The notes beneath the pieces are model-generated. The model saw nothing but the letters and a program-made list of their open reading frames with translations, made no database searches and was not told where the DNA came from. Positions 27,968-63,794 of a DNA stretch of 64,000 nucleotides are shown piece by piece. A program made the position numbers and the translations under genes. Every line of letters begins with the position of its first letter. Within the stretch, counting starts at the first letter, position 1. The DNA is from an uncultured Verrucomicrobiaceae bacterium (lineage in GTDB: Bacteria; Verrucomicrobiota; Verrucomicrobiia; Methylacidiphilales; CAYYVW01), in assembly GCA_964473925.1 (NCBI GenBank), contig CAYYVW010000002.1, forward strand, positions 54,206-118,205, read 5' to 3'.

Positions 27968-27971
27968 GCTT

Positions 27972-28613: not shown

Positions 28614-28634
28614 CAACATCAATCACCATACTCT

Positions 28635-29356: not shown

Positions 29357-29363
29357 ATAAATT

Positions 29364-29849: not shown

Positions 29850-29877
29850 GGCAGCCTTTGATTCAGCGCAATCGCTA

Positions 29878-30282: not shown

Positions 30283-30320
30283 AACTTTGTCGTATTAGAA
30301 TGGCGGGAAAGGATAAAAAC

Positions 30321-30692: not shown

Positions 30693-30775
30693 GGGGATTC
30701 TCCTTTATAATAGGGTTGCTCAAGAAGATCGGTTTTTCTTGGGGATTAAGGCGGCATTTTTGTTTTGCGCGCGGC

Positions 30776-31825: not shown

Positions 31826-31857
31826 GATGTGAAAACCCTCGTGGTTAGAGTATTTAA

Positions 31858-33407: not shown

Positions 33408-33412
33408 AAGCC

Positions 33413-43476: not shown

Positions 43477-44720
43477 TTGATGTTTTTCTCGTTTGCGACG
43501 ACGTCGACCGGGCGTCCGCCGTGCGCGCCGCCATCGCGGCGGACTCCGAGTTTGCGCTCGCTAGCGACGTACGAACAGGACGGGAAGGGATCTTCGCCAC
43601 CTCATCCATCGCGCGCGGGCACCCACGCCTTTTGGTAGTCCGCCTCGCGCTGGGCGACATGAACGGGTTGGAGGTAATTTCCCAAGTCCGCCAGAAATCG
43701 CCGGACATGTGGGTCGTTCCTATTTTGGAAGGGAACGAAGGCGGGCAGACGTGGCAGAGCCTGCTTCAGATGGAATTGCGTGACGTGATTGTCGGTCCGA
43801 TGCCGCCCGCGGAGATGCTCAAAGTCCTCCGCGCGGCAGGCGCACACGCGCAGGAGCTTTACAACGCCAACCGTGGGGTGCACGGCCCGATGACGGGAGA
43901 GGCGTATATCATCACGGTGGCCGGCGCGCGTTCCGGCGTTGGCAAATCCGTCATCGCCTGCAACTTGGCCGCTGTCTTGGCACGGCATAATCCCAACACT
44001 GCCTTTTTGGACTTTAGCCTCCATGCAGGCGACGTGATCGTCATGCTCGATGAGGTGCCGCGCAATACGATTCTGGAAGCGGTCGGCGCGGGCGGTGGGA
44101 TCGATGCCGAGTTGCTTAACAACCTGCTGGCGACGCATCCCAAGTACCGGATGCGCTACCTTGCCTGCCCTAATCAAGATTTTGATGCGTCGACCTTTGA
44201 TTACAACATCGCTCTTTCGATCGTGCAGACGATGCGTCACGTCAGCCAGTACGTGGTGATCGATACTGGCATGGCCTCCGTGGGCCCCACGATTGCAGCA
44301 GTGGATGCCAGTGATTTGACGTTTGTCGTCACGACGCGCGACGTGATCCGGCTGCTGGCGACTCAGCGCTTCCTCAAATATTTGAAAACCGACCGCAACG
44401 TTCCGAATGAGAAGATCAAGGTTCTGGTGAACCAGTCTGAGATCGGGGCGGAGATCTCCGAGAGTGAAATCGAGGCGCTGCTGGAACACCCAGTGGCGGC
44501 TTACCTGCCCTCAAACCCGGTCCCGGTTGCATTCTCAGTCAATAGCGGCAGCCCCATTACGATTGCCGAGCCGCAATATCCTATTTCCGTCGTGCTCAGC
44601 AAGCTGGCTGAGCTCTGTCTGCACCGTTGGCAGGAGCCGGTGAAGGGTTCGACTGCCAGTGGGGGACGAAGCGCCGGCGGAGGGCGGACGGGGCTTCCAA
44701 CAAAGATAAATTTACGTTAA
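43473..44720 (+). CDS. cpaE: CpaE/TadZ: receiver-like N-terminal domain plus ParA/MinD-like ATPase domain
   Basis: It overlaps cpaC by 4 nt. Deviant Walker A ITVAGARSGVGKSVIACNLA. Confidence 0.8.
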   Translation: MIDVFLVCDDVDRASAVRAAIAADSEFALASDVRTGREGIFATSSIARGHPRLLVVRLALGDMNGLEVISQVRQKSPDMWVVPILEGNEGGQTWQSLLQMELRDVIVGPMPPAEMLKVLRAAGAHAQELYNANRGVHGPMTGEAYIITVAGARSGVGKSVIACNLAAVLARHNPNTAFLDFSLHAGDVIVMLDEVPRNTILEAVGAGGGIDAELLNNLLATHPKYRMRYLACPNQDFDASTFDYNIALSIVQTMRHVSQYVVIDTGMASVGPTIAAVDASDLTFVVTTRDVIRLLATQRFLKYLKTDRNVPNEKIKVLVNQSEIGAEISESEIEALLEHPVAAYLPSNPVPVAFSVNSGSPITIAEPQYPISVVLSKLAELCLHRWQEPVKGSTASGGRSAGGGRTGLPTKINLR

Positions 44721-44884
44721 TCAAACGCGGATGGTCTTGTTGGATAAGAAGCAATTTGTGTATTAGATTAGATGAGAACAGGGAGAGGGGCAGGCGCAGA
44801 CCGACAGGCGCGCTTGGCTATTTTCCAACGCCGCTTTTTGCCGGGAGTCTGGGCTAGGCCGACTCACGGCTTGCGATATTTTTT

Positions 44885-46426
44885 ATGACACCGCCACCAC
44901 CACCGAATTTGGGAAGGCTTGCGCCCCCTCCCCCGCCTAATCTTGGCGGCGGATCTGTGCCGGCGGCGCCGCCTCCTGCAGCAGGAATGGGAATGCGTCC
45001 CGCCGCACCTCCGCCGTCTATGCCGTCGAGCTTGTTAAGCGGCGGCGGGCAAGCCGCGGCGTCCGCAGGCGGACATGGCGGCGCGGTCCAAGCGAGTTTT
45101 TCCGGAGGACGGGCGGGGAGCAACGCCCACGACCCGGCCCAAGAATTTGTCCATCAATTTAAAAAACAGCTTCTGCCGTATTTGGTTCAAGCCATTGAGC
45201 CGCGCCTTCTTGAAAAAGGAAATGAAGCGGCTTTGCGGGCGCGCATCGAGCAGCTGGTCGATGAGCGCTTAACAGCAGACAAGGTGCCAATCGGCCGTCA
45301 ACTGCGCGTCAAACTGCTCGGCGATATCATCAACGAAATGATCGGGTATGGCCCTTTGGAGGATTTGCTCAAGGACGACACCGTTTCGGAAATCATGGTC
45401 AACTATCCAATTGTTTACACGGAAATAAAGGGCCAAATCCTGCTTTCGCCGGTCCGGTTTGTGGATGAGGAGGGCTGCCGCCGCGTGATCGATCGCATTC
45501 TTTCTCCTTTGGGGCGCCGCGTGGATGAATCGAGCCCCATGTGTGACGCGCGCCTGCCGGATGGCTCGCGCGTCAACGTCATCATTCCGCCGCTGGCGCT
45601 CAACGGCCCGGTCATAACGATCCGCAAATTCAGCAAGAAGCCGCTGACGATGGAGCGGATGATCGAGTTTAAAACCCTCTCTCAGAGCATGGCGATGTTC
45701 CTGCGGGCTTCCGTCCACTGCACGCTCAACATCGTCATTTCAGGCGGCACCGGCTCCGGAAAAACGACGATGCTCAACGCACTCTCGTCCTACATTCCGC
45801 CGGCGGACCGCATCATCACAATCGAGGATGCCGCAGAATTACAGCTGCAGCAAGAGCACGTGGTGCGCCTGGAGAGCAAGCCGAAGAACATTGAAGGCAA
45901 GGGTGAGGTCACGATTCGTGACTTGGTGCGCAACTCGCTGCGTATGCGCCCCGACCGGATTGTCATCGGGGAGTGCCGCGGCGGAGAAGCGCTCGACATG
46001 ATTCAAGCGATGAACACGGGCCACGATGGTTCAATGACCACGACGCACGCCAACTCTCCCCGCGACGCGATCGCGCGTCTGGAGACGCTGGTGCTGATGG
46101 CAGGCATGGATCTGCCGCAGCTGGCCATCCGTCAGCAGATCGCCGGCGCCGTGCACTTGATCGTTCAGATCAGCCGTCTATCGGACCACTCGCGCAAGAT
46201 CACGTGCATCAGCGAAGTTCAGGGGATGGAGGGGAACATGGTGACGATGCAGGACATCTTTAAGTACGAGCAGACGGGCGTCACGCCGGAGGGCAAGCTG
46301 ATTGGCGTCACCCGCGGACTGGGAATTGTGCCTAAGAATCAAGTGCGGTTTAACGCCAACGATTTGAATATTCCCGTCGAGATTTATCAGAGCGTTCTTT
46401 ATCACAACGATCCCAATCAGGCCTAA
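44885..46426 (+). CDS. cpaF: CpaF/TadA secretion ATPase with a proline-rich N-terminal extension
   Basis: Walker [17 protein letters not shown]; ...[11 protein letters not shown]...[38 protein letters not shown]. Confidence 0.9.
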
Positions 46427-46440
46427 ACTCTAAACCGCAT

Positions 46441-47421
46441 ATGATGATTTTATTGGCCCTTACGGTGGTCGGCACATTTGCGCTAGCCGCGATGGCGATC
46501 GTGCAAGCGCAAGGAGCGCCGGGCGTTGATTTGCGCCAGAAACTCAAGAGCCTCACGAGCCAGCCGGAAGGATTGGTCAAAGAGGTTTCCTTGGGAATCG
46601 AGGAGCGCAAGCTGCCGCGTTTTGATTTTCGCAAAATCTTTAGTCGTTTCACTGGGCAAGCATATATCGAATCGGTTGAGCGCGCGCTGGTTCAGTCCGA
46701 CATCCCGATGCGCGCGGGTGAGTTTTTGTTGCTTCGAGTGGGCATGATCCTTGGAGCATTTTTAATTGTGCAGTTTTTTACGGGAGTTTTCGGGTACGCG
46801 GTGGCGGCGGCGGCACTGGCGGCGATTATCCACATTCCTTTCATGAGCATTAAGCGCGGAATGCGCATCAATAAATTCGTCGGCCAGCTGGCCGAGTTTT
46901 TGATCTTGGTGACCAACTCGCTGCGCGCCGGACAGACATTTTTGCAGGGGGTGGATATTGCCAGTAAAGAGTCGCCCAATCCGATTGGCCTGGAGTTTCG
47001 TCAGTTGCTCAAGGAGACAAGCCTGGGTCTGCCGGTCGACCAAGCCTTCACGAACATGCTGCAGCGGGTGCCCAGCGAGGATCTGCAGATTGTGATGAGC
47101 GCGTTCACCATTCAGCGCAATATCGGCGGTAATTTGGCGGACATTATGGATCAGGTTGCGGCGACGATTCGCCAGCGCATTCAAATCCAGGGGCAAATTC
47201 GCGTGCTTACCACCCAAGGAAAGCTTTCGGGCGCGATCGTCGGCCTTTTGCCAATTGGCTTGGGCACGATTGTCAGTTTCATGAATTACGACTACATGGC
47301 GCTTTTGTGGCGGCATGATCCCATCGCCGGCTGGGCCGGGCCCATCATGCTGGGCATCGGCATTTTCATGCAGCTGCTCGGCTGCTTTGTCATTCACAAG
47401 ATTTGCCAAATTGAAGTTTAG
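46441..47421 (+). CDS. tadB: TadB (type II secretion system F-domain membrane protein)
   Basis: T2SSF-type domain ...LAEFLILVTNSLRAGQTFLQGVDIA... with flanking TM helices. Confidence 0.85.
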   Translation: MMILLALTVVGTFALAAMAIVQAQGAPGVDLRQKLKSLTSQPEGLVKEVSLGIEERKLPRFDFRKIFSRFTGQAYIESVERALVQSDIPMRAGEFLLLRVGMILGAFLIVQFFTGVFGYAVAAAALAAIIHIPFMSIKRGMRINKFVGQLAEFLILVTNSLRAGQTFLQGVDIASKESPNPIGLEFRQLLKETSLGLPVDQAFTNMLQRVPSEDLQIVMSAFTIQRNIGGNLADIMDQVAATIRQRIQIQGQIRVLTTQGKLSGAIVGLLPIGLGTIVSFMNYDYMALLWRHDPIAGWAGPIMLGIGIFMQLLGCFVIHKICQIEV

Positions 47422-47445
47422 AACCTAACCCATTCATTTTTTTCC

Positions 47446-48390
47446 ATGATGACGCTACTCATCGCGCTGACCTTGCTGGGGGCCTTTGTGCTTCTGGGAA
47501 TCGGCATGCTTCCGGCGGAGGCGTCGTCGATCGGCAAGCGGCTGGAAGGCTTGCAAGCCGCGGCAGCAGGAACGGACGTCAAAGCCTCCCTGCGGGATGC
47601 GGAGGAAATGAACAAGAGCTTCATCGTCCGCGTGATGCTTCCCTTGGCAGACCGGTTTTCAAAAATTTTCTCGACCATCACGCCGGTTGGCATGATGGAC
47701 CGCGCGCGCAAGGATATCGCCGCGGCTGGGATGATCGGCAAGGTGACGGCTGTTCAGCTCACCACGCTCTCATGGATTTTGATGATCGGCCTACCTGGTA
47801 TCATGTGGATGGCGACGGCGTCCAAACCGCGCAGTTTTTCGGAATGGGGCTTTATTTTGCTCGCGCTGATGCTGGGCTATCGGCTGCCGATCGGCGTCGT
47901 CAAAAGCCGCGCCAAGCGCCGGCAAACCGCGGTTTTGCGGTCACTTCCCTTTACGCTGGATCTGATTTGCATCAGCGTGGAGGCCGGCGTTTCATTTGAC
48001 GGCGCCATTCAAATCGTAACCGAAAAAACTAAAGGACCGCTGACCGACGAGTTGGCGCTCGCCCTGCGCGAGGTGCGTCTGGGCAAAGGCCGCAACGAAG
48101 CGCTCTTGGATATTGCGCAACGGACGGGCGTGGAGGATCTCAGGAACTTTCTTTCGGCAGTGGTCTACATTTCCCGTCTGGGCGGCAGCTTGGTCAACGT
48201 CATCCGGATTCAGGCTGACGCGATCCGAATTCGCCGCCGCCAGCGCGCGGAAGAAAAGGCGATGAAAACGCCGGTTAAAATCATGATCCCGCTGGTGCTC
48301 TTCATCTTTCCGGCGATGTTCATTGTCATCCTGGGTCCTGCGGGGATTCGCTTGATGCAAAACATGGCCAACTCCGTCTTGTCTCCCTAA
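47446..48390 (+). CDS. tadC: TadC (type II secretion system F-domain membrane protein)
   Basis: ...LPFTLDLICISVEAGVSFDGAIQIV...RRQRAEEKAMKTPVKIMIPLVLFIFPAMF. Confidence 0.85.
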   Translation: MMTLLIALTLLGAFVLLGIGMLPAEASSIGKRLEGLQAAAAGTDVKASLRDAEEMNKSFIVRVMLPLADRFSKIFSTITPVGMMDRARKDIAAAGMIGKVTAVQLTTLSWILMIGLPGIMWMATASKPRSFSEWGFILLALMLGYRLPIGVVKSRAKRRQTAVLRSLPFTLDLICISVEAGVSFDGAIQIVTEKTKGPLTDELALALREVRLGKGRNEALLDIAQRTGVEDLRNFLSAVVYISRLGGSLVNVIRIQADAIRIRRRQRAEEKAMKTPVKIMIPLVLFIFPAMFIVILGPAGIRLMQNMANSVLSP

Positions 48391-48401
48391 AGAGGTCTTT
48401 T

Positions 48402-48998
48402 ATGTACAAACTGATTCGCCGCAAAAGTAAGAACGCTGCGGCGCCGCTGCGGGCAGGGACGCGGCGGAGGAACCAGGCGCAGACCACGGTCGAGTTCGCG
48501 CTGATCGTCTGGCCATTTCTGCTTTTGCTTTTCGCAACCATTGATTACGCGCAGCTTTATTTCTACGACTCCTCACTGCGCCATGCGCTGCGCGAGGCAG
48601 GGCGGTTTGCCACCACGGGCAACGTGATGCGGACCAATTTCGTTCTCTCCAACGGGCCGTTGCAAAGCAGTTACGAGGCCAACAAGCCAATTTCACGGAT
48701 GGAAAGCATTCGGCGCATCTTTCAGACCAATTGCCTCGTGAACACGCCGATTACTAATATTGTTGTTGAGAGTTGGCCCGGGCTTGCGGAAACGGGGACC
48801 GAAGCAGCCCCCAATAAAGGGCCTGGAGACGCGGACGATAATGTGCGCATTAAAGTGAGCGCCGAAGTGCCGATGATTACGCGGCTTTTTTTTACGAATA
48901 CCAAGTATAAGACAACGGTTACATCTGTGTTTCGCAATGAGCCGTCGCGCAATTTTTTGAACACCATTACAACCAACTACTATGGAGCGGAGCCTTAG
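48402..48998 (+). CDS. tadE: TadE-like pseudopilin 1
   Basis: N-terminus ...RRNQAQTTVEFALIVWPFLLLLFATIDYAQ is the TadE signature (xxVEFALxxP). Confidence 0.8.
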   Translation: MYKLIRRKSKNAAAPLRAGTRRRNQAQTTVEFALIVWPFLLLLFATIDYAQLYFYDSSLRHALREAGRFATTGNVMRTNFVLSNGPLQSSYEANKPISRMESIRRIFQTNCLVNTPITNIVVESWPGLAETGTEAAPNKGPGDADDNVRIKVSAEVPMITRLFFTNTKYKTTVTSVFRNEPSRNFLNTITTNYYGAEP

Positions 48999-49001
48999 GC
49001 C

Positions 49002-49613
49002 ATGAAAACGCTTCCTATTTTCATTCGGCAAGGCCGCCGCCGCTGCCGCAGCCAGTCCTTGGTTGAGTTTACGCTGATCCTGCCGATCTTTTTGACGCTG
49101 ATGTGCGCCGTTTTTGACTACGGCTACATGATTACCAATGCCCAGATTTTGGCGATGGCAGCGCGGGAAGGGGCCAGTACCGCGACCCGGCAGGTTATTT
49201 TGCCCATTGAAGCTGGCCTTCAAGCAGTGACCAACGCGGCACATCCCCGCCTTAATCTGGCCGGGCCGACGGGCGCGTGCATCATCACCAAAGTGGTATA
49301 TGATCCTTCGACCAGCACCAACTATGTGTATGTACCCACCCCGGTTGATTCCTACTGCCTTTACCTGGGCGGGCTTTGGGGCGGCACGGCGAATGATGTC
49401 TGCAATAAAAGCCGGATTCTTTCCGCGGACGGGACCGACCCACAGCCATGGAAGTGCCGCCGCCGCCAGCTTCCTTTTGCCGGTTCTTGGCTCGCCACCA
49501 ACCAAGAGATGTACGTGGTGGAAGTCTTTCTCACCAATCAGTTTGTAACGCCGATTGGAAGATTGATCGGCTTGGTGACGCCCCCCATCCTTTACGACGC
49601 TGCTTTCTTCTGA
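49002..49613 (+). CDS. tadE: TadE-like pseudopilin 2
   Basis: ...CRSQSLVEFTLILPIFLTLMCAVFDYGYM. Confidence 0.8.
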   Translation: MKTLPIFIRQGRRRCRSQSLVEFTLILPIFLTLMCAVFDYGYMITNAQILAMAAREGASTATRQVILPIEAGLQAVTNAAHPRLNLAGPTGACIITKVVYDPSTSTNYVYVPTPVDSYCLYLGGLWGGTANDVCNKSRILSADGTDPQPWKCRRRQLPFAGSWLATNQEMYVVEVFLTNQFVTPIGRLIGLVTPPILYDAAFF

Positions 49614-49659
49614 CATGTTACAACAGGGCCCAAAATAACTTTTAACGAACGGATTCTTT

Positions 49660-51852
49660 ATGAAGCGCAACCCTCGTTCCAGTCAGACGTTCGTTTTTTT
49701 TCTCATCTCGTTCGGAGCCATTTGGCTGCTCTGCGGCCTGGGCCTGGATGGAGCGCTGCTTTATTTATCAAAAGCCCGCATCAGCCGGGCGTGTGACGCC
49801 GCGGTTATTTCCGGCGTCAAAAACTTCCCCAAGGGCCGGGATCAAGTGTCGGCCATTATGCGCAATATTGCGGCAGCAAATTACACGGACTTGTCCGTTG
49901 TTCCATCAACGCCGACCAGTGTAGCCACCAACAATCTTGCGGGCGGCGACATCGAGTACGTTTATCTTTATACCAACGCAGCGAGAGGCAACAGCGTTAC
50001 CTGTACGATCGGAACGGGCTCGGCCGGGCAGGTGACGCGGGCCCAATGTGATGCGAGCGTCAAGCAGCGGACGCTCTTTATGTCTTTCACCGGGCTGGAC
50101 CGGGTGACGAACTTTCGCGTGCATGCGCTTGCCGAAGCGCAGCGGCGCCCGCGCCTGATTATGCTCGTCCTCGACCGCTCGTGGTCCCTCCGGGTTCAGA
50201 ACACCGGGTATCTGACGCTGCCTCCGGCCGTTTCGAACTTCCTGACGCTTTTTGATACGAATGCGGATCGCATCGGCATGGTTTCCTTCTCCGATTTTGC
50301 GCGACTGGAAATGCCGATTACCAACAACTTTATTGTGTTGGGAACTAATAAACTATCGTCAGCAGATTCGATCCTGGCGACAGATAACCCATCGGGCATC
50401 AAGTTCGGAGGTTCCACGGCGGCGGAAGAAGGGATGCGCTTGGGGCTCGAAACGCTTAAGGCCGATAGCGGGTACACCGATCCGCGCACGCTTAAGTACA
50501 TCGTTTTCTTTACGGACGGTGAATTTAACTCCGTCAGATCGTTGTATGCCTCGCCATGCTGGACCAACACCGTGTATGTGCCGTCTGGCGCGACGGGCGC
50601 GCAACTCAGGACGAATATTCTCCAAATGCCCAATGTTACTAACATCCCATTTGCAACGGCTGCCCGGATAGGCGCCCCCACAAATTATTTACGGCCTACG
50701 ACCAATACCGCGACCGGCAGCACCGCCTATTCCACCAATTTGGATATTTGGATGATGCCTGGATCCATCAATTTCACATTCCGTACCGGAAACACAAACC
50801 CTGTTATTACGATTAGCCAGCTGACCAACATGAGCATTTCAGTCAAGCTGGTGCCCGGCGAGACCAACATGCTCGTTGTTCCAGGTTTTGTCATCGATGG
50901 CGTGGGATATAGCAAGCACGACACAGCAATCAGCCAGTACAGCAGCGCGTCCTTTATTAGGTGGCCTGACACGGCAACCCCCAGCCTGTCAACACTGCGC
51001 AGGTATATGGTGCGGCACCCAACCAATCTGTGGGGGGGGCTGCGCGTCTATAAACCGGACGATCCGGATCTGAACGGTGACGGCCAGCCTGACAATCTGA
51101 GCGGAAGCAATCAGTATCCGGCGGGAGCCTTTTACTGGCCAATGAACACGGTAAAGCTTCTGAGCAGCTCTTCTTTCGCTGTGGGACAAGTGCCTTGGAT
51201 GTCGACAAACCTAAGCGAGTCCGATTGGCGCGCCGCGGGCAGCTTATTTTACAACTCGAGCGGCCAAATGGCGGCCGATGCCGCGTGGCAGGTGGACGCG
51301 CCAGACTGGGTCACCAACGCATTTGCGAGCATCATGACTAATGATGCAGCGACAAAACAATGGCGGCCCATTTCCTATCGTGGCGTGCCGCTGGCTTCCG
51401 TAACGGCGGGGAGCCTGCCCACGCTTTACGGCATCCCCACGGCTACGCGCGGGGCAGTGCTATTGGCGGACGGGACCACGAATGTTAACGCAATGGCATG
51501 GGGATGTATGCCGACGCATTTTTATGATGCGGTAAATGCAGGGTGGCGGCCCTTCACTAACTTCACCGATATGTCCATTCAGTTGCTGGCAGTCGGCAAC
51601 TGGAAGACAAGACGGTACTGCGATGAGGCCCGGCAAGACAGCGTGACGATCTACACGCTTGGGTTCGGAAGCGGCGTGCCGGCGTCCCAGGGCACAGTCC
51701 TGCGTGCCATGGCCAATGACCCGACGGTAGGCTCTCCAACATTCCAGGCCGACCAGCCGATCGGAAAGTATTACTTCACGACCAACGCAGCGGATCTCTT
51801 TAGTTACTTCAAGGAAATCGCGGAGCGAATCCAGGCAGTCATCACGCAGTAG
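49660..51852 (+). CDS. tadG: TadG-like protein with a von Willebrand factor A domain (730 aa)
   Basis: N-terminal TadG-type hydrophobic segment FVFFLISFGAIWLLCGLGLDGALLY. vWA MIDAS motif LVLDRSWSL, later VFFTDGEFN and IYTLGFG. Confidence 0.8.
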   Translation: MKRNPRSSQTFVFFLISFGAIWLLCGLGLDGALLYLSKARISRACDAAVISGVKNFPKGRDQVSAIMRNIAAANYTDLSVVPSTPTSVATNNLAGGDIEYVYLYTNAARGNSVTCTIGTGSAGQVTRAQCDASVKQRTLFMSFTGLDRVTNFRVHALAEAQRRPRLIMLVLDRSWSLRVQNTGYLTLPPAVSNFLTLFDTNADRIGMVSFSDFARLEMPITNNFIVLGTNKLSSADSILATDNPSGIKFGGSTAAEEGMRLGLETLKADSGYTDPRTLKYIVFFTDGEFNSVRSLYASPCWTNTVYVPSGATGAQLRTNILQMPNVTNIPFATAARIGAPTNYLRPTTNTATGSTAYSTNLDIWMMPGSINFTFRTGNTNPVITISQLTNMSISVKLVPGETNMLVVPGFVIDGVGYSKHDTAISQYSSASFIRWPDTATPSLSTLRRYMVRHPTNLWGGLRVYKPDDPDLNGDGQPDNLSGSNQYPAGAFYWPMNTVKLLSSSSFAVGQVPWMSTNLSESDWRAAGSLFYNSSGQMAADAAWQVDAPDWVTNAFASIMTNDAATKQWRPISYRGVPLASVTAGSLPTLYGIPTATRGAVLLADGTTNVNAMAWGCMPTHFYDAVNAGWRPFTNFTDMSIQLLAVGNWKTRRYCDEARQDSVTIYTLGFGSGVPASQGTVLRAMANDPTVGSPTFQADQPIGKYYFTTNAADLFSYFKEIAERIQAVITQ

Positions 51853-56127: not shown

Positions 56128-57450
56128 CTAGGCCGCCGAAATCTTTTTTTGCAGATTGCGCAGGCCCTGAATAATCCCAGCCGCACGCTCCAGCTGTCGG
56201 TCTGCGGGCGGCGCGGCGGACTTGGCCTTCACCAGCGGCACACGGGCCAGAAAAAGCGCGCGCTCTTCTTGTTCGGTGATCGGCGCGATGATGTCGGGCG
56301 AAACACCGACCTCATGAATTTTTTGGTGCGAGGGCGTGTAATAATGCGCGGTCGTCAGCCGGAGGCCCACGCCGCCGCCCAAATCTTGCACCGATTGGAC
56401 GGAGCCTTTGCCAAACGTGGTCTCGCCTAAAAGAACTGCTCGACGCAAATCGCGCAGCGCCCCGGCGATAATCTCGGCACCGCTCGCGCTGTACGCATTG
56501 ACGAGGATCACGATCGGATACGCCGCCCGCTGTTGACTATTGTGGGAGTGGTACTGGTTGTTGTGCTCGGGCTTGCGGCCTTCGGTGGAGACGACGAGCT
56601 GGTTCGGCGGCAAAAATTCTCCGGCGATATCCACCGCCGCATCGAGCAACCCGCCCGGGTTGTTGCGTAGGTCCAACACCAGGCCGTCCATGCCCTTGTC
56701 GTCCAATTGATTCAAAGCCCGGTTAAATTCCGCCGCGGTATTTTCTCCGAGCTGCTCGATTCGAATGTAGCCGATGCGCGCGCTGCCGCTGAGCGCGGGA
56801 GGGAGCAGCTTGGCGTCGCGCACCGTCGCAACCTTGATGAGTTCGCGCACCAGCTTGACCTCAAACACCTGTCCTGCCGCGGAAGGATCTCCGGCTGCCG
56901 ACCGGCCGATCGTGAGCGTGACTGGCTCACCTCGTTCTCCGCGCAAGCGTTTGGTCGCTTCATGCAGCGGCATCGTTTCAGTGGTTTTGCCGTCGATTTT
57001 GAGAATCCGATCCCCGGGCAGCAACCCGGCGCGAAAGCCGGGCGTGTCTTCCATCGGCGCGCTGACGATGAGCTGGCCGCGCTGCGTTGTGACGACCAGC
57101 CCGACACCCGAAAATTCGCCTTTGGTTTCTTTCTGCAGCTCAGCGAGCGCCTCCTCGTCCAAGAACTGGCTGTGCGGATCCAGGTTTTCGAGCATGCCGC
57201 GAAGGCCCGCGTAAATGAGGCTGCGATATTCGGTCTTGGAAGGGTCGACATACTCTTGCCGGATCAGCTCCAGCACGCGAGTTGAAAGCCACGTTGCTTC
57301 GTATGCCTCTTCGCCTTTTTTGCTCTCTTGTTTACGCCCGGTGTTGGGACGGCCTTCAGCGCTGTGGGCGGCGATTGCAAAAAACAAAATCAGGCAGCAC
57401 GTCGCAACGCCCCATCCCGCTTTTTTGAACCAAGTGCGCATAAGATTCAT
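56128..57450 (-). CDS. ctp: Carboxy-terminal processing peptidase (S41, PDZ-containing)
   Basis: ...GVGLVV...GFRAGLLPGDRILKIDG (PDZ) ...LVLDLRNNPGGLL...VILVNAYSASGAEI...GETTFGKGSVQ. Confidence 0.9.
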   Translation of the reverse strand: MNLMRTWFKKAGWGVATCCLILFFAIAAHSAEGRPNTGRKQESKKGEEAYEATWLSTRVLELIRQEYVDPSKTEYRSLIYAGLRGMLENLDPHSQFLDEEALAELQKETKGEFSGVGLVVTTQRGQLIVSAPMEDTPGFRAGLLPGDRILKIDGKTTETMPLHEATKRLRGERGEPVTLTIGRSAAGDPSAAGQVFEVKLVRELIKVATVRDAKLLPPALSGSARIGYIRIEQLGENTAAEFNRALNQLDDKGMDGLVLDLRNNPGGLLDAAVDIAGEFLPPNQLVVSTEGRKPEHNNQYHSHNSQQRAAYPIVILVNAYSASGAEIIAGALRDLRRAVLLGETTFGKGSVQSVQDLGGGVGLRLTTAHYYTPSHQKIHEVGVSPDIIAPITEQEERALFLARVPLVKAKSAAPPADRQLERAAGIIQGLRNLQKKISAA

Positions 57451-57515
57451 GAGGAGGGAATAAGGCAGCTATAGCGCGGCGCAGGTAACGCGCCAAGCAA
57501 ATGTGCGGCAGCGCG

Positions 57516-58574
57516 TTACCCGCCTCCGCCGAGTTCTTGAATCAGATGCACGAGCGGCAGGAAGAGCGAGAGAACCACTCCGCCGACGATCACCCCCAAC
57601 AGCGCGCTGAGCACCGGCTCGACCAGACCCGTGAGCCGAGCGATCGTCGTTTCGACCTGTTGGTCGTACAGGTCCGCCGCGCGCAGCAGCATCTGCCCCA
57701 GTCGCCCAGTTTCTTCTCCGACCTGCACCAGACTGGAGACCATCGCCGGGAAGTGGCGGGATGCGGCCAACAGGCGTCCGAGCGGCTGCCCCTGCTGAAC
57801 TTGCTCCCGCAAATGCGCCAGTGCCCGCGCGAGCTTTGGATCACGGCCCATCGTTTGGGTGATTTCCAGCGCGGATAAGAGCGGCACGCCGGATTCGACG
57901 AGCGTTCCGAGCGTGCGCGTAATCTGTGCCAGTGCGATTTTTTCTGCGGCAGGCCCCACGAGCGGTATCCAGCGCGGAATTTGTTGCCCGCTCCATCGAG
58001 AGGCCAGCCACGTTCTTCCCAACCAAACGGCAACGATTCCTGCGGACAGGAGGCCCACCACCCAGATAGTTCGCTGCGTGATCCAGTCGCTGGCGCCCAG
58101 CACGGTTTGCGTGAGGAGAGGGAGCGGGCGATTTTCAAACGCGCCCAGCAGCAGGCTCTTAAATTCCGGAATAACCCAGACGAGTAAAAAAATAAAAATG
58201 AGCGCTGCGGCAATCAGTACAGCAGCGGGATAGAGCAGCGCGGTTACCACGCGTGCGCGGAGCCGCTCCATTCGCTCTTGAAAATCCGCGAGCCGCGCGA
58301 GAAGTTCCGGTAACGCTCCGCCCGCTTCTCCGGCGCGCACGAGCGAAACGTAGAGCGGGCCAAACGCGTCGGGCTGCGTTGCGAGCGCTTCGGAGAGCGC
58401 GTGCCCCGTCTGCACGAGCCCCGCGACGGAGGCAAGCCGCGCGCGGCGCTCCGGCATTTCTTCCTGCTCGACGAGTAGCTGCAAACTCCGCGCTAGCGGA
58501 ACCCCCGCGCCGACCAAGACCGCCAACTGGCGCGTGACCAGCGCCGGAATGCGCGCGCGGCTGGCAAATATCAT
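57516..58574 (-). CDS. gspF: GspF/PilC-family platform protein (two T2SSF domains, short N-terminus)
   Basis: ...LAVLVGAGVPLARSLQLL... and ...TRTLGTLVESGVPLLSALEIT. Its start overlaps the upstream stop as ATGA. Confidence 0.85.
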   Translation of the reverse strand: MIFASRARIPALVTRQLAVLVGAGVPLARSLQLLVEQEEMPERRARLASVAGLVQTGHALSEALATQPDAFGPLYVSLVRAGEAGGALPELLARLADFQERMERLRARVVTALLYPAAVLIAAALIFIFLLVWVIPEFKSLLLGAFENRPLPLLTQTVLGASDWITQRTIWVVGLLSAGIVAVWLGRTWLASRWSGQQIPRWIPLVGPAAEKIALAQITRTLGTLVESGVPLLSALEITQTMGRDPKLARALAHLREQVQQGQPLGRLLAASRHFPAMVSSLVQVGEETGRLGQMLLRAADLYDQQVETTIARLTGLVEPVLSALLGVIVGGVVLSLFLPLVHLIQELGGGG

Positions 58575-59791
58575 GCCACGGCTCCCAGCACTTCCTCCGC
58601 CGTCGTTTCACCAGCGAGCACACGCTGGCGGCCGCTGGACCGGAGAGAATCAAACCCGCATGCTTGCGCCGCCCGGCGCAACTCCACCGCGGGCGCGCGC
58701 TCGTGGATCAGCGCGTGCAAGGCCGGCGTGATTGGCCAGAGCTCCACCAGCGGCAAGCGTCCGCGGTAACCGGTGCCATGGCAATCATCGCAGCCGATTC
58801 CTTTGTGGAAATGCACGGCCGGCATCCCCGGCGCATCGAATCCGAATTCTTTCAGCAATTCCGGGGACGGCGCGAACGCGTGCCGGCAGGACGGACAAAT
58901 CCGCCGCACGAGCCGTTGCACGACCACGCCGGTGAGCGTCGCGCAGAGCAAGTACGGCTCAATCCCCAAATCAAGCAGTCGTGCGATCGCCCCGGCGCCA
59001 TCATGCGTGTGCAATGTGGTGAGGACGAGATGCCCCGTGAGCGCCGCCTGCACCGCCATCTGTGTCGTTTCGGCGTCGCGCATCTCGCCGACCATCAACA
59101 CGTCTGGGTCGTGTCGCAGGAGAGATCGCAGTGCCTGCGCAAAGCCCAGGCCGATCGCTTCCTCCACTTGCACCTGCACCGCGCCGGGCAGCTCGTATTC
59201 GACCGGGTCTTCCACCGTGACGATTTTTGCGCCGGGCCGGTTGAGCGTCTGCAAGTACGCATAGAGCGTCGTCGTTTTGCCAGAGCCGGTCGGTCCGGTC
59301 ACGACGACCAGCCCATGCGGCCGCTGCGTCCATTTTTCCAGCTGCTCCCGCACCGCGATGGGCAGGCCCAGCGCTTCTGGATCCAGCGCGACCGCCGTTT
59401 GATCGAGCACTCGCAACACGGCGCTCTCGCCCCATTGCGTCGGCAGCGTGCTGAGGCGCAAGTCGACCGTGCGTCCTTCCGCGGTGAAAGAGAAGCGACC
59501 ATCCTGCGGCGCGCGTTGCTCGGCGATATCCAATCGCGCGAGGACCTTTAAACGCGTTGCGATCGTTTTGCCCAGGAACGCGGGCGCAGGCGCCATCTCA
59601 TGCAGGGCTCCGTCGACGCGGTAGCGAATTTTCAGCTCATGCTCAAACGGTTCGAAATGAATGTCGCTGGCCCGTGCACGGACCGCTTGCGTCAGCACCG
59701 CCTCGACCAGCTCCACCAGCGGCGTTCCGGTTTGAGTCGGCGCGTGTTTGCGCCGGGCATCCTTGGGCGCCTTAATGCGGATCCCCTTCAT
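58571..59791 (-). CDS. gspE: GspE/PilB-family secretion ATPase, paralog 1 (no N-terminal N1E/GSPII domain)
   Basis: Walker A VTGPTGSGKTTTL, Walker B VLMVGEMRD, His box TGHLVLTTLHT, and tetracysteine CPSC...CDDC. Confidence 0.9.
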   Translation of the reverse strand: MKGIRIKAPKDARRKHAPTQTGTPLVELVEAVLTQAVRARASDIHFEPFEHELKIRYRVDGALHEMAPAPAFLGKTIATRLKVLARLDIAEQRAPQDGRFSFTAEGRTVDLRLSTLPTQWGESAVLRVLDQTAVALDPEALGLPIAVREQLEKWTQRPHGLVVVTGPTGSGKTTTLYAYLQTLNRPGAKIVTVEDPVEYELPGAVQVQVEEAIGLGFAQALRSLLRHDPDVLMVGEMRDAETTQMAVQAALTGHLVLTTLHTHDGAGAIARLLDLGIEPYLLCATLTGVVVQRLVRRICPSCRHAFAPSPELLKEFGFDAPGMPAVHFHKGIGCDDCHGTGYRGRLPLVELWPITPALHALIHERAPAVELRRAAQACGFDSLRSSGRQRVLAGETTAEEVLGAVA

Positions 59792-60996
59792 GCCGGTTCC
59801 TCCATCGTCGCGCGGAGCACTTCCAGCGGCGTCGTCAATCCTGCGAGCGCTTTGAGCGCACCATCCTCCCGCAGCGTCCGCATGCCACAGGCACGTGCGT
59901 GGGAGCGCACCGCCGCCGGGCCAATGCCGGTATGAACGTGCTGTCGCACGGTTTCATCTAGCCGCCACAATTCAAACAGGCCGAGTCGGCCGGAAAATCC
60001 GCTGCCCCGGCACTGCGCGCATCCGGCCGGTCGCCGCCACGTTGAGGAGGAGGCAACCTCGTGCGGCAACCCGAGCGCGGCGAGCTCTTGCGCGGACGGG
60101 CGATACTTCGCGCCGCACGCCGGGCAAAGTTGTCGTACGAGCCGCTGGCCCAGCACTCCGCGCAGGGAAGAGGCAACCAAGTACGCGGGCACGCCCAGAT
60201 CGACGAGTCGCAGCGCGGCGCTCGTCGCGTCGTTGGTGTGTAGTGTGGAAAGAATGAGGTGCCCCGTCAGCGCGGCTTGCACGGCGATGCGCGCCGTCTC
60301 GCGATCCCGGATTTCACCCACCATAATAATATTAGGAGCTTGCCGCAGCATGGCTCGTAGCGCGCTGGCAAAGGAGAGGCCCGCCGCCTCGTGCACCTGC
60401 GCCTGGTTCACGCCCGCGAGTTGATACTCCACCGGATCCTCGACTGTCAGAATCTTGCGGCTGGAAGAATTGAGCGCCTGCAAGCATGCATATAACGTCG
60501 TCGTTTTTCCCGCTCCCGTCGGACCGGTTACCAGCAGCAGGCCGTCGGGCAGCGCCAGCAGTTCTTCCAGCGCCTGCCGGTCCTGCGCGCGCAAACCCAG
60601 TTGCGAAAGCCCCGGCGCTCCCGCCGCAGGATCGAGCAATCGGAGGGCGACGCTCGGCCCATGCCGTGCCGGCACCACCGACACACGAACGTGCAACGGC
60701 TTGCCGTTTTCCAGCTCGAGGAGAATCCGTCCGTCCTGCGGTAGGCGTTGTTGCGCGATATCCAGATGCGCAAGAATCTTGATGCGGTTGATGATCGCCG
60801 CCGGATCGAGCTCGTCCGGCCCCGGACGAAATTCCAGCACGCCGTCGATCCGCCGCCGCACCACGAGCCCGCGTGCGGTTGATTCCAGATGAAGATCGCT
60901 GGCCCGTTGCTCGTGCGCCTCTTCGATCAGCCGCTGCACCCATCGAATGACCGGGGCTTCTGAGGCGGTGTGGCGCGGCGCGGTGAGCGAAGGCAT
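59788..60996 (-). CDS. gspE: GspE/PilB-family secretion ATPase, paralog 2
   Basis: Walker A VTGPTGAGKTTTL, IIMVGEIRD, TGHLILSTLHT, and CPAC...CAQC. ATGA overlap with paralog 1. Confidence 0.9.
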   Translation of the reverse strand: MPSLTAPRHTASEAPVIRWVQRLIEEAHEQRASDLHLESTARGLVVRRRIDGVLEFRPGPDELDPAAIINRIKILAHLDIAQQRLPQDGRILLELENGKPLHVRVSVVPARHGPSVALRLLDPAAGAPGLSQLGLRAQDRQALEELLALPDGLLLVTGPTGAGKTTTLYACLQALNSSSRKILTVEDPVEYQLAGVNQAQVHEAAGLSFASALRAMLRQAPNIIMVGEIRDRETARIAVQAALTGHLILSTLHTNDATSAALRLVDLGVPAYLVASSLRGVLGQRLVRQLCPACGAKYRPSAQELAALGLPHEVASSSTWRRPAGCAQCRGSGFSGRLGLFELWRLDETVRQHVHTGIGPAAVRSHARACGMRTLREDGALKALAGLTTPLEVLRATMEEPA

Positions 60997-61005
60997 AGGA
61001 AAATT

Positions 61006-61797
61006 CTAAATAGGCACAATCAGCTGCATCCCATCATACGCAACCTCGATGCCCGCGGGCAGCTCGGAAGATCGCTGGCTGTGCGTTTTTTGATGCGTCA
61101 AATGAGTGAGGAACGTGCGGCCCGCGCCAATCGTGCGAGTGGCCTCGATCGCTTCCGGGATCGATTGATGTGTCGGGTGCACTTCATCGCGCAGGCCGTC
61201 GAGGATGAGGATCGGAATGCCCGCTAGCTGCGCGCGCACCGCTTGCGGAATCTCTTTGGCATCACAAAAATATCCCAGCAGCGGACGACCCGCCTGCGCA
61301 AAAAGATAGCCGACCGTCTGCACATCTGCGTGCGGCACTTCCAGCGGCGTGATCGTCAACCCGCCCAGTTCCAGTGGCGCGCCGGGCGTCAGCTCGTGCG
61401 GCGTCACGCGCACATAGCCAGTCCCCTCGGGCGCATCAAAGGCCCAGTAAAAATTCCGGCGCAGCGCGGCGAGTGTCTGCCCGCACGCGTAGATCGGTAG
61501 CGCCGTTTTTTGCACTGCGCAAAATTGCCGCAGATCATCGAACCCCGCGATGTGGTCGGCATGCTCGTGGGTGAAGAGAACGGCGTCCACGCGCGTCAGC
61601 CGCTCCCGCAGTGCCTGCTGCCGCAGCTCGGGCGACGTATCGACCAGAATCCGCGTGCCGTCCGGCGTCGTCATATAAAGCGAGCAGCGCGTCCGCGAGT
61701 CGCGCGGGTCGGGGGAGCGGCAGACCGCGCAGTCGCACGCCACCATCGGCACGCCCTGCGACGTGCCGCAGCCCAAAATGGTCGCCTCCAGTTGCAC
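61006..61797 (-). CDS. MBL-fold metallo-hydrolase (PhnP-like)
   Basis: ILGCGTSQGVP...C.C..C...VLFTHEHADHIAG (HxHxDH). It ends 9 nt before the first gspE start. Confidence 0.8.
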   Translation of the reverse strand: MQLEATILGCGTSQGVPMVACDCAVCRSPDPRDSRTRCSLYMTTPDGTRILVDTSPELRQQALRERLTRVDAVLFTHEHADHIAGFDDLRQFCAVQKTALPIYACGQTLAALRRNFYWAFDAPEGTGYVRVTPHELTPGAPLELGGLTITPLEVPHADVQTVGYLFAQAGRPLLGYFCDAKEIPQAVRAQLAGIPILILDGLRDEVHPTHQSIPEAIEATRTIGAGRTFLTHLTHQKTHSQRSSELPAGIEVAYDGMQLIVPI

Positions 61798-61834
61798 TCG
61801 AATGGTCTACGCTCCGCTTGCTCGGGGCGCAACT

Positions 61835-62602
61835 CTACTTGCGTGGGCGCTCATGCATCCCAGGAGGTTTTTCCCACCGCCGCCGGATTCCAAATAAAGA
61901 TTGCGCGGCCAGCCACGCCGTTCGCCACGCCGCCTCAAACGCGATCGCGCCCGACATCTTCGAGTCGCCCGACTGCCGCCCTTCGAACGTGATTGGGTGT
62001 TCCGCCATCGGCACGCCCTGCCGCCAGAGGCTGTGGGTAATCTCAATCTGAAAGGCGTAGCCGTTGGCGCGAATCTTCGGCCAGTCGATCTTCTCTAGTG
62101 CCGAGCGGCGGAAGCACTTGTATCCGCCCGTCGGATCCGAGAGCGGCATCCCAGTCAGCAGCCGCACGTATTGCGCCGCGGCCAAACTCAGCAGGAGCCG
62201 CGCGATCGGCCAATTCACCACGCGCACGCCGCCCGAGAAACGCGAGCCAATCACCGCTTCCACCGCATCCAATCGCTCGAGCATCTTCGGGATCTCCACC
62301 GGATCGTGCGACAAGTCCGCGTCCATCTGCACGATTTGCGCGTAGGGCCGCTCCAGCGCCCAGCGAAAGCCCGCCGCGTACGCCGTTCCCAGCCCCTGCT
62401 TGCCGGGCCGCGCGATCAGGTGGAGCGTCTTGCCAAAGCCCGGCTGCGCGCGGACCCACGCCGGCGTTCCGTCGCCCGAGGCGTCGTCCACGATCAGCAC
62501 GTGCGCACGCTCGCGCACCGCATGCAGGCGGCGGAGGAACTCGGGCAAATTTTCCCGCTCGTGGTAAGTCGGGACGATGACCAGGAGAGAATCGTGTTGC
62601 AT
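61835..62602 (-). CDS. GT2 polyprenol-phosphate mannosyltransferase (Dpm1-like)
   Basis: LLVIVPTYHERENL...VLIVDDASGDGT...GLGTAYAAGF...VQMDADLSHDP. Confidence 0.85.
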   Translation of the reverse strand: MQHDSLLVIVPTYHERENLPEFLRRLHAVRERAHVLIVDDASGDGTPAWVRAQPGFGKTLHLIARPGKQGLGTAYAAGFRWALERPYAQIVQMDADLSHDPVEIPKMLERLDAVEAVIGSRFSGGVRVVNWPIARLLLSLAAAQYVRLLTGMPLSDPTGGYKCFRRSALEKIDWPKIRANGYAFQIEITHSLWRQGVPMAEHPITFEGRQSGDSKMSGAIAFEAAWRTAWLAAQSLFGIRRRWEKPPGMHERPRK

Positions 62603-62804
62603 GGGCGGCGCGCGCTAATCCAACGCGCGAGGGGGTTCTGCCGCTCACGCTACCAAAGCTGGGCGGGCCAGGGCGCGCTTTTTTCTTCTCCACGAATGCT
62701 GGCTCAGCGCGCGGGTATGCGTTTGACAACCGCCCCCTACCTCGAGAAAGATACGCCCCGCGCGCGCTTCCCGAGAAATCCCGCTAGCGCCGCAATCTAA
62801 AAAC

Positions 62805-62875
62805 TACCCGATGGTGTAACGGTAACACAGCGCCCTTTGGAGGCGTTATTCATGGTTCGAATCCATGTCGGGTAA
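62805..62875 (+). tRNA. tRNA-Gln (anticodon TTG)
   Basis: Hand-folded: acceptor tacccga/tcgggta, anticodon arm gcgcc-ct-TTG-ga-ggcgt, T arm catgg-ttcgaat-ccatg. Confidence 0.85.
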
Positions 62876-62893
62876 ATAGAGCGCGCTATATGT

Positions 62894-63286
62894 TTAGCGC
62901 TGTCGCTCTCTCTCAGCGAGACGCTGCTCGCACGCCGCCATGCATTGCTGCTGTTCCGCTTGAGTTGCGACTACCGAGCCGGTGCGTGTGCACGATCCTA
63001 CGGCTGCACAGATTTCCGTCCGCTCGCGTTTTGCTGCGCCCTTATGCGTTTCGTTCAGCTGCCATACGCCAAATCCTGCTACCGAAACGCCCGCCGCCAA
63101 CGTTGCCCAGCGGGTTGCTTTTCTTAGCTGAGCTAATCTCGGATGCGCTTCGCTCCAGTGTTTGTCCAACTTGGCGGTCGCCTCATTTTTCCATGCAGGC
63201 CGCAAGGTCAACTCTCTCAAGGCAGGACCGGTAAGCCACTCCGTAAAAGGAGGACGATATTCAGCAGGATTCACATATTCATTCAT
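62894..63286 (-). CDS. Hypothetical small membrane-anchored Cys-containing protein (paralog A)
   Basis: 130 aa with the central hydrophobic segment WATLAAGVSVAGFGVW and a C-terminal Cys/Gln-rich region. It is similar to the next ORF. Confidence 0.5.
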   Translation of the reverse strand: MNEYVNPAEYRPPFTEWLTGPALRELTLRPAWKNEATAKLDKHWSEAHPRLAQLRKATRWATLAAGVSVAGFGVWQLNETHKGAAKRERTEICAAVGSCTRTGSVVATQAEQQQCMAACEQRLAERERQR

Positions 63287-63333
63287 ATTTTCTTCTTATG
63301 CCGGCGCTTTCGGTTGCCGCCCATCCGGGCTCG

Positions 63334-63624
63334 TCAGGGCGTAGGGCAAGGGCAGTGACGCTGTGCTTGCTGTGCCGCCAGAAGCTGTTCGCAATCGGTT
63401 GCGGCAGGAACCGCTGAGCCTGTGCGAAGTGAGCTTGTTGCGACAGATTGCTTAGGTACGGAGGACTGAGAAGGGCCGCGGAGACCGAGCCACATTGTTC
63501 CTGTGAATGCCAGCGCTACAAGGAAAGGTCCCGCAATTTGGTCTAGAGCGCCCCGGACTGGGTGCGCCTTAAGCCAGGCTTCATGCCGCATCTGTTCTAC
63601 ATATTCGCCACGGGAGCTTGTCAT
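63334..63624 (-). CDS. Hypothetical small membrane-anchored Cys-containing protein (paralog B)
   Basis: The track ORF extends to 63735, but that would overlap tRNA-Arg. The ATG at 63624 (MTSSRGEYVEQ...) aligns with the MNEYVNP start of paralog A. Shared features: HP after an acidic/aromatic stretch, a TM segment, RTGS.V, and a C-terminal CEQ.L. Confidence 0.45.
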   Translation of the reverse strand: MTSSRGEYVEQMRHEAWLKAHPVRGALDQIAGPFLVALAFTGTMWLGLRGPSQSSVPKQSVATSSLRTGSAVPAATDCEQLLAAQQAQRHCPCPTP

Positions 63625-63720
63625 AACAAACCTCGTACCGCACCAAAGGCATCTCGTCCAACCACTTTTTACTTGCTGGAGCGTCCGGCCCAGGGTTGTG
63701 TGTGTGGTCTTCCTGTCAAA

Positions 63721-63794
63721 GCGCCCGTAGCTCAATTGGATAGAGCGTTGGCCTCCGAAGCCAAAGGTTGTGAGTTCGACCCTCGCCGGGCGCA
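63721..63794 (+). tRNA. tRNA-Arg (anticodon CCG)
   Basis: Hand-folded: acceptor gcgcccg/cgggcgc, anticodon arm ttggc-ct-CCG-aa-gccaa, T arm gtgag-ttcgacc-ctcgc. Confidence 0.9.

Follow-up and report, generated by a model that had tools for sequence, protein, structure and literature searches.

What kind of machine is encoded by a tight run of secretion-motor genes in an uncultured Verrucomicrobiaceae bacterium, and does that run stand alone? The genes lie in a stretch of 64,000 nucleotides (nt) of contig CAYYVW010000002.1 (hereafter the window). A sequence-only reading had presented four of them as a self-contained minimal unit, with a metallo-beta-lactamase-fold (MBL) gene in the lead, two secretion ATPases in tandem and one platform protein. 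Here E1 and E2 denote the tandem ATPases, F the platform and MBL the metallo-hydrolase gene; L001 and similar handles denote related contigs or loci. The four genes, with protein lengths in amino acids (aa), are as follows.

61006-61797, minus strand: MBL, PhnP-family MBL-fold hydrolase, a neighbour (263 aa; Pfam Lactamase_B_2, E 6e-38).
59788-60996, minus strand: E1, PilB/GspE-class assembly ATPase (402 aa; Pfam T2SSE, E 7e-120).
58571-59791, minus strand: E2, second PilB/GspE-class assembly ATPase (406 aa; Pfam T2SSE, E 1.5e-128).
57516-58574, minus strand: F, PilC/GspF platform (352 aa; two T2SSF stretches, Pfam E 2e-58).

The locus probably encodes the type IV filament motor of Verrucomicrobia (for a type IVa pilus or a type II secretion-like system) in a form specific to its lineage and limited to the core. 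In the best reading, MBL is excluded from this motor, and the missing partner genes lie outside the window or were lost. The underlying module is known and common. What is new is the loss of N-terminal domains from all three motor proteins and the orphaning of the motor from pilin and PilT genes.

The coordinates of the open reading frames (ORFs) bore out the basic layout: four minus-strand genes, a 9-nt gap between MBL and E1, and 4-nt ATGA overlaps at both E1-E2 and E2-F. MBL was called from a GTG start (263 aa), and the Logan gene call favours a 256-aa start. The short motor proteins are not a start-codon miscall, because the frames upstream of the three starts, read in the identical contig L001, stay open for just 3, 54 and 11 codons and are too short for longer N-termini. 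The arrangement is no assembly artefact either, since two independent Sequence Read Archive assemblies (L001 and L099) were 100% identical to the window over 57410-63769. An assembly or frameshift artefact behind the short proteins was ruled out: three assemblies are identical, the frames have no room upstream, and proteins of equal length occur in a divergent relative. Promoter-like sites (1 observed, 1.3 expected) and terminator-like sites (10 observed, 10.0 expected) across 55-64 kb were at chance level and uninformative on operon limits.

Pfam and motif positions confirmed for both ATPases that the N-terminal domains are absent and that the Walker A and B motifs, the His box and the tetracysteine motif are kept. 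T2SSE matches of E1 and E2 spanned profile positions 3-6 to 369-370 of 370, and no Pfam match to MshEN/T2SSE_N (PF05157) was found in either. Both proteins begin at about residue 167-180 of full-length orthologs, and of the domains only N2 and the C-terminal ATPase domain are left in each. The nucleotide-binding and zinc motifs map as follows.

60502-60525, minus strand: E1 Walker A, GPTGAGKT, aa 158-165 (positions counted from the gene start, 60996).
60010-60126, minus strand: E1 tetracysteine zinc motif, CPAC at aa 291 and CAQC at aa 326.
59273-59296, minus strand: E2 Walker A, GPTGSGKT, aa 166-173.
58781-58897, minus strand: E2 tetracysteine zinc motif, CPSC at aa 299 and CDDC at aa 334.

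The Asp box, Walker B and His box follow at aa 185, 223 and 244 in E1, and at aa 193, 231 and 252 in E2. The tetracysteine zinc motif marks assembly ATPases; PilT, a protein of about 340-370 aa, lacks it. E1 and E2 are 46% identical to each other. Over their whole lengths both matched the core that forms hexamers in Vibrio EpsE, in the PilB proteins of Myxococcus and Geobacter and in Thermus PilF (323-368 bits), and their matches to PilT reached just 80-133 bits. E1 aligned to residues 28-410 of EpsE (1p9r) and to the PilF core fragment. Scores fell below the GspE equivalog TIGR02533 (cutoff 630; E2 510, E1 500 bits) and the PilB equivalog TIGR02538 (cutoff 676; E2 477, E1 444 bits). The full-length orthologs likewise lay just under these cutoffs, with 581-627 and 546-609 bits, respectively. 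Against the PilT/PilU model TIGR01420 (cutoff 319) E1 and E2 reached 172-185 bits. Both are thus predicted to be assembly-class (PilB/GspE) ATPases. Immediately ahead of Walker B (alignment columns 206/208), at least 90% of E1-clade proteins have A-x-N and not D-x-D. Window E1 carries this signature as 'APN' at aa 220-222; E2 and the reference GspE and PilB proteins have D-x-D.

F begins at its first T2SSF domain, as the sequence-only reading had it. No T2SSF_N match was found in F by Pfam, and the N-terminal region was missing in alignment A1 too. The protein consists of the core only (cytoplasmic domain Cyto1, transmembrane segments TMS1 and TMS2, Cyto2 and TMS3), without the N-terminal region of about 65-100 residues seen in relatives; its hydrophobic segments lie at residues 107-146, 168-190 and 311-348. 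An AlphaFold2 model (pLDDT 81) was all-helical and showed the expected core. In this model Cyto1 superposed on the crystal structures of OutF, EpsF and PilC (target-normalised TM-score 0.77-0.88), and the whole chain matched the Myxococcus PilC model 3jc8_Ca. The best F matches all came from the Planctomycetes-Verrucomicrobia-Chlamydiae (PVC) group. Among the best 120 F homologs, all others except a protein from contig L004 were 403-444 aa long, and nearly all of these had T2SSF_N.

A genome scan with the F alignment as query, restricted to one genome per species, yielded 80 loci. Nearly all were from metagenome-assembled genomes (MAGs) named Verrucomicrobiota; a few were from Lentisphaerae, Kiritimatiellae and Auribacterota, one was from a metagenome assembly and two were from oddly named bins. 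The order E1-E2-F was present in 29/80 loci and E1-PilT-E2-F in 25/80, together 54/80. In about 11/80, F had no ATPase-like gene upstream although sequence was present there, and contig ends interrupted the remaining loci. Two assembly-class ATPases in tandem, which had been taken for something special, are a phylum-wide feature and the norm in Verrucomicrobiota; the inner-membrane motor module is also conserved in some other PVC bacteria. The short middle ATPase of the relatives is a true PilT/PilU family member (451 bits, cutoff 319). A division of E1 and E2 into separate extension and retraction ATPases, as had been suggested, is therefore unlikely, because both score as assembly-class and relatives carry a PilT of their own between them.

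ORFs of prepilin type, with GFTLIELL... ahead of a hydrophobic segment, started within 150 nt of the F stop in 28/75 loci and within 1 kb after F in 41/75; ten loci had three or more of them. In many relatives the cluster also contains PilT and between one and six prepilin genes. Because relatives carry prepilin genes after F and a true PilT, we read the module as a type IV filament motor. Relatives thus hold these genes inside a fuller set, with pilin genes and PilT, which counts at least in part against the minimal-unit reading. The same triad stands among unrelated housekeeping genes in other contigs: it follows gatCAB in L002 and nusA-infB in L003. E1 of Cephaloticoccus primus is on the strand opposite to E2-F and 8 kb away from them.

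The presence of PilT between E1 and E2 (e.g. L007:8891-9961, L057:6903-8042) roughly tracks taxonomy. The PilT-containing order was seen in Opitutae, Limisphaerales and subdivision 3, and loci mostly without PilT in Verrucomicrobiales, Akkermansiaceae, Chthoniobacterales and Methylacidiphilales. In two Opitutae-type loci coaE-rho stands directly before E1 (L005:282-4773, L007:4791-8855). A pilus-like locus of Akkermansiaceae, MUL2, has PilM, a pilin-like protein and a secretin beside coaE-rho (PMC13174399), and the two placements of coaE-rho, next to E1 and next to MUL2, may be the remnant of one ancestral pilus supercluster. The contigs L051 and L021, from MAGs named Haliangiales and Bifidobacterium, hold E1-PilT-E2-F and E2-F loci of Verrucomicrobia type and are probably mis-binned. 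In L002 (9538-11233) E1 is split into overlapping ORFs of 172 aa (MshEN) and 410 aa (T2SSE), which has the look of a frameshift or sequencing error and not of a true short E1. No description of the E1-(PilT)-E2-F cluster was found in the literature on type IV filaments and Verrucomicrobiota; genomes annotate its members as PilB/GspE, PilT and PilC/GspF. A review of type IV filaments describes the chlamydial type II system as atypical, without GspL/M, and does not mention Verrucomicrobia (PMC6668835).

Descent was examined with the two ATPases separately. In a protein collection of 5.8 billion clusters, the nearest relatives of E1 were 51-57% identical, and the complete ones were about 567 aa long with MshEN. 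The nearest relatives of E2 were 53-62% identical, almost all of about 560 aa with MshEN; those with names were Opitutaceae, Cephaloticoccus, Didemnitutus, Verrucomicrobium and Methylacidiphilales. Overall, the names of homologs all indicated Verrucomicrobiota. The mean identity of E1-clade proteins was 51.2% with window E1 against 44.5% with window E2; for E2-clade proteins it was 52.5% with window E2 against 45.3% with window E1. In neighbour-joining (NJ) trees the E1 and E2 orthologs formed separate clades (57 and 69 sequences). Window E1 was the deepest and longest branch among the E1 orthologs, and window E2 paired with L004 E2 at the base of the E2 orthologs. Bootstrapping was by NJ with 200 replicates on a 44-sequence subset that included four reference cores derived from PDB entries. 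PilT-like sequences had been left out of both trees by length and score filters, and the PilT identity rests on the NCBIfam score.

Window E2 and L004 E2 were sisters in 198/200 replicates, the E2 clade including the window was recovered in 165/200 and the E1 clade including the window in 95/200. With respect to the references, E2 grouped with GspE in 67/200, E1 with PilB in 27/200, and E1 and E2 exclusively with each other in 17/200; PDB bit scores were equal for the GspE and PilB references. A lineage-specific duplication was ruled out: window E1 and E2 were sisters in 1/200 replicates, and their mutual identity is 46% against 51-53% to their own orthologs. The E1/E2 duplication is older than the sampled radiation. 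The window motor is thus placed by descent, as far as sequence comparison tells, within the Verrucomicrobial E1-E2-F module, with good support for the orthology of E2 and F and weaker support for E1. It has the gene order of the module and falls in the module's own clades (E1 weakly); the full-length domains and the prepilin gene after F are absent.

What sets the window apart is the joint loss at the N-termini. In the 80 loci, all complete E1 and E2 proteins had 145-250 extra N-terminal residues relative to the window, and F, wherever a contig end did not truncate it, always had tens of extra residues, typically 65-100. The sole other 352-aa F without the N-domain in the 5.8-billion-cluster collection was that of L004, a 2.7-kb Joint Genome Institute (JGI) contig in which F is preceded by a 395-aa E2 lacking the N-terminal domain and by the tail of E1 (62% identity to the window in E2, 53% in F). 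A HMMER pass over 1.84 billion cluster representatives returned no further close F relative, the next best being 43% identical; other short F-like proteins were present there in more distant lineages. A metagenome contig scan with the two N-less F proteins (A2) gave distant relatives only (28-38% identity) and no new members of the N-less lineage. Loss of N1/MshEN from E2 alone was seen in L007:10001-11299 (432 aa) and L101:191-1504 (437 aa), where F keeps its N-domain; this partial, E2-only loss is independent of that in the window and has happened at least once more. A regular expression for the c-di-GMP-binding MshEN motif matched none of 117 full-length N-termini; the pattern was unverified, so the result has no bearing on c-di-GMP control.

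Losses of this extent raise the question of whether E1, E2 and F have stopped building filaments and are the leftovers of a type IV filament machine whose loss in this lineage is complete or under way. Such a decaying relic would fit the removal of N-terminal domains from all three proteins, the absence from the window of the flanking pilin gene and PilT of many relatives, the substitution of about 15% of near-invariant clade positions with the long branches, and the presence in this organism of a complete Tad system, which could take care of adhesion. The divergence at conserved sites and the long branches fit changed function or relaxed constraint. Against decay, the ORFs are intact with precise ATGA overlaps, all catalytic and zinc motifs are intact in both ATPases, and the boundaries of loss coincide with domain boundaries, with no random truncation. 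Many E2 substitutions at otherwise conserved sites are common to the window and L004. Because a relative at 53-62% identity keeps the N-less E2, the 352-aa F and these substitutions, the N-less form appears to have been maintained under selection for long. The N-domain of the platform PulF has also proved experimentally dispensable (PMC10790770). We therefore regard the relic as unlikely.

A core-only filament motor remains the preferred reading, and several observations weigh against it. E1, E2 and F all score below every NCBIfam equivalog cutoff, and window E1 joins the E1 clade with 48% bootstrap support only. Of the clade columns conserved in at least 95% of sequences, window E1 keeps 128/151 and E2 132/155 (about 85%), where ordinary members keep about 99%; the E1 branch is the longest of its clade, and that of E2 is among the longest. 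Pilin, secretin, peptidase, PilM/N/O and PilT genes for such a motor were not found in the 64 kb, and filament-motor activity is thus at most predicted here. That E1 and E2 would take turns on a single platform, part of the mechanism proposed below, is argued only from analogy.

The mechanism is modelled on the Klebsiella PulE-PulF motor. The N-domain of PulF is mobile and sits at the periphery; neither stability nor trimerisation depends on it, and PulF without it still supports secretion and pilus assembly at lower efficiency (PMC10790770). In a high-confidence 6:3 model of PulE(deltaN1D):PulF(deltaN), each Cyto domain contacts the N2 domain of an ATPase (PMC10790770). The ATPase N1 domain binds the membrane anchor PulL (PMC10790770). 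The domain content of the window motor equals this PulE(deltaN1D):PulF(deltaN) core set. Because the window encodes exactly that set, E1 and E2 would each form ATP-driven hexamers, and each hexamer would dock through its N2 domain on the ring that the cytoplasmic domains form in oligomeric F. The resulting E:F complex would drive the insertion of pilin subunits into a filament. The N1 domain usually tethers or regulates the ATPase through GspL- or PilM-type partners, so in the window lineage the motor would run without N1-mediated tethering or regulation. Pilins, prepilin peptidase, alignment complex, secretin and any PilT would be encoded beyond the window, or have been lost.

How two ATPases would share one platform can be seen in two ways. 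The paralogs probably alternate on F, perhaps for different pilin sets or conditions. Otherwise E1 and E2 would form mixed hexamers on F, a hetero-oligomeric motor in place of separate homohexamers. Translational coupling by the ATGA overlap and the adjacency of E1 and E2 in 29/80 loci suit mixed rings, as do the retention of both paralogs throughout the phylum and the A-x-N signature of the E1 clade, which hints at subunit specialisation. Each paralog, however, has a complete active site, and known PilB, PilT and PilU act as homohexamers (stated for PilT and PilU in PMC6821130 and PMC6858323). Alternation is favoured because PilT splits E1 and E2 in many relatives (25/80 loci) and because E1 of Cephaloticoccus primus is 8 kb away on the other strand; mixed rings we consider quite improbable. 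That the window encodes a working, naturally minimised dual-ATPase motor, with two N1-less ATPases on one N-less platform, no GspL- or PilM-type tether and possibly no PilT, is a tentative and somewhat doubtful proposition.

The place of MBL was judged from its relatives and from the genes around it. Among these are two further genes of the same strand and a tRNA gene.

62805-62875, plus strand: tRNA-Gln, upstream boundary of the co-directional run.
61835-62602, minus strand: GT2, family-2 glycosyltransferase, a neighbour and first gene of the run (Pfam Glycos_transf_2, E 8e-24).
56128-57450, minus strand: S41 (Ctp-type) peptidase with PDZ domain, a neighbour (Pfam Peptidase_S41, E 5e-55).

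The run comprises GT2, MBL, E1, E2, F, the S41 peptidase and an ornithine cyclodeaminase-like gene, with gaps of 37, 9, -4, -4, 65 and 50 nt. It thus begins one gene before MBL and goes on past F, and the four genes are not the self-contained unit led by MBL that had been proposed. The S41 peptidase gene fills the slot after F that a prepilin gene holds in many relatives.

MBL aligned over its full length (residues 3-259) with PDB 6b9v (E 4.5e-57, about 45% identity), an entry labelled as a flavin adenine dinucleotide (FAD) photoproduct diphosphatase (PMC7599082), and less strongly with PhnP 3g1p (E 1.6e-16). It has the HxHxDH metal motif (HEHADH, aa 77-82) and a cysteine cluster (Cys21/23/26). 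It resembles the 6B9V enzyme in the full-length alignment, the HxHxDH motif and the N-terminal cysteines, and differs in scoring under the equivalog cutoffs (NCBIfam PRK02113, GPMC-system MBL and PhnP). Most likely, going by these similarities, MBL is a housekeeping diphosphatase of the PhnP family, its activity being predicted.

Were MBL-E1-E2-F a dedicated minimal operon, the MBL enzyme would be a functional part of a new secretion or pilus motor. The genes do share a strand with a 9-nt gap, no terminator-like signal above chance lies between MBL and E1, and the arrangement was reproduced in three assemblies of the same organism. An MBL gene was upstream of E1 in 0/80 genome loci, though, and was absent there also in L002, L003, L005 and L007; the single MBL homolog within 10 kb of the module among the 80 loci was in L035, 6 kb downstream of F. 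The linkage to E1 is thus not conserved, the closest solved relative is an enzyme of flavin damage, and the adjacency of MBL and E1 carries little functional weight because the run starts earlier and extends past F. A role of MBL as operon leader or motor partner is highly improbable, and from the sequence evidence the gene is most likely a chance neighbour of the motor genes, with which it may still be co-transcribed.

Which partners the window itself could supply was read from its remaining genes. The absence of accessory genes (pseudopilin, secretin, GspL/M-type) noted at first sight held throughout the 64 kb outside one locus, the Tad locus. Secretin and GspL/M-type genes were found nowhere else in the window, nor was any part of the canonical type II secretion set (GspD, pseudopilins GspG-K, GspC/L/M, prepilin peptidase). 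No prepilin-type ORF and no PilT gene were found anywhere in the window.

39812-51852, plus strand: complete Tad/Flp pilus locus (RcpC, secretin, TadZ-like, TadA, TadB, TadC, two TadE, TadG-VWA).

As described earlier, this locus has an ATPase of its own (TadA) and lies about 5.7 kb off, ending 5.66 kb from F. A receiver domain stands at the N-terminus of the TadZ-like protein (43473-44720). At 889 aa the secretin of the locus is long, and its weak match to a BON domain is below the Pfam cutoff.

The other genes of the window are housekeeping genes: dnaN-recF, phosphoenolpyruvate carboxykinase (PEPCK), fructose-bisphosphate aldolase, ZnuABC and sugar-nucleotide enzymes. The adjacency of dnaN and recF (21896-24281, plus strand) suggests that a replication origin may be near, yet the cumulative GC skew makes no sharp turn there. 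The GC fraction is 0.53-0.57 over 26000-32000 and about 0.61 elsewhere, and 28.6-30.7 kb holds small ORFs only. One of these (28635-28979) has a GMVCNFCA motif of heavy-metal-binding type, and another (29364-29666) looked by eye like a CsoR/RcnR-type metal repressor; the low-GC stretch around them may have been acquired as an islet for metal handling. At 32349-35144 (plus strand) the gene of a type III polyketide synthase precedes those of a methyltransferase and an FAD-binding protein, a small putative secondary-metabolite cluster. Long ORFs without a Pfam match (213-488 aa) lie at 14323-15789, 16181-16897, 12563-13216 and 5579-6220 (all minus strand) and at 27939-28613 (plus strand); in this GC-rich DNA some of them may be spurious.

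Four known systems were compared with the window motor. The closest is the Verrucomicrobiota/Lentisphaerae E1-(PilT)-E2-F cluster, which is alike in gene order, tight spacing, two assembly-class ATPases with zinc motifs and a single platform gene. Its members differ in having 155-210 extra residues (MshEN/N1) on both ATPases, 65-100 extra residues on F and often PilT and prepilins, none of which is present in the window.

The type II GspE-GspF pairs (EpsE/EpsF, PulE/PulF) resemble the window genes in their cores. Both ATPase cores aligned end to end with 1p9r (EpsE minus its first 90 residues) at 349-368 bits, and Cyto1 of F superposed on the EpsF and OutF structures with a root-mean-square deviation of 1.1-2.5 Å. 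In contrast to that system, the window has two ATPases and not one, they lack N1E and therefore a GspL-binding site, no GspC, D or G-M genes are in the window, and the proteins are below the GspE and GspF cutoffs.

Similarity to the PilB of type IVa PilB-PilT-PilC systems (Myxococcus, Geobacter, Thermus PilF) equals that to GspE, at 333-368 bits. The relatives share PilT in the cluster and pilin genes after it with these systems, and the whole of F matches the Myxococcus PilC model. The window differs in that its second ATPase is of PilB/GspE class and not PilT, in that no PilT, pilin or PilMNOPQ gene is present, and in that the N-domains are missing.

Firmicutes ComGA-ComGB has an equally short architecture, an N1-less ATPase with a platform starting at the first T2SSF repeat. 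The ComGA model was matched over 2-266 of 267 positions and the ComGB model over 7-332 of 332, with scores under the cutoffs (ComGA cutoff 300, window ATPases 266 and 235 bits; ComGB cutoff 240, F 110 bits). Because the window genes descend from PVC clades, this likeness is attributed to convergent domain loss.

For annotation, a neighbourless GspE-GspE-GspF tandem is to be read as the standard Verrucomicrobiota motor layout, whose other parts are often elsewhere, and not as an orphan oddity; an adjacent MBL gene is not to be counted into the motor system. Two assembly ATPases per platform have been kept phylum-wide, and no experimental work on this arrangement across Verrucomicrobiota was found in the literature. 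Relatives such as Akkermansia now have genetic tools. If active, the window motor would be the natural equivalent of the engineered deltaN1D/deltaN constructs and could help to show what the N-terminal domains are for. If the minimised motor does work, the joint loss of three N-terminal domains would mean that the ATPase N1 domain and the platform N-domain form one anchoring or regulatory circuit, which can be dropped as a unit.

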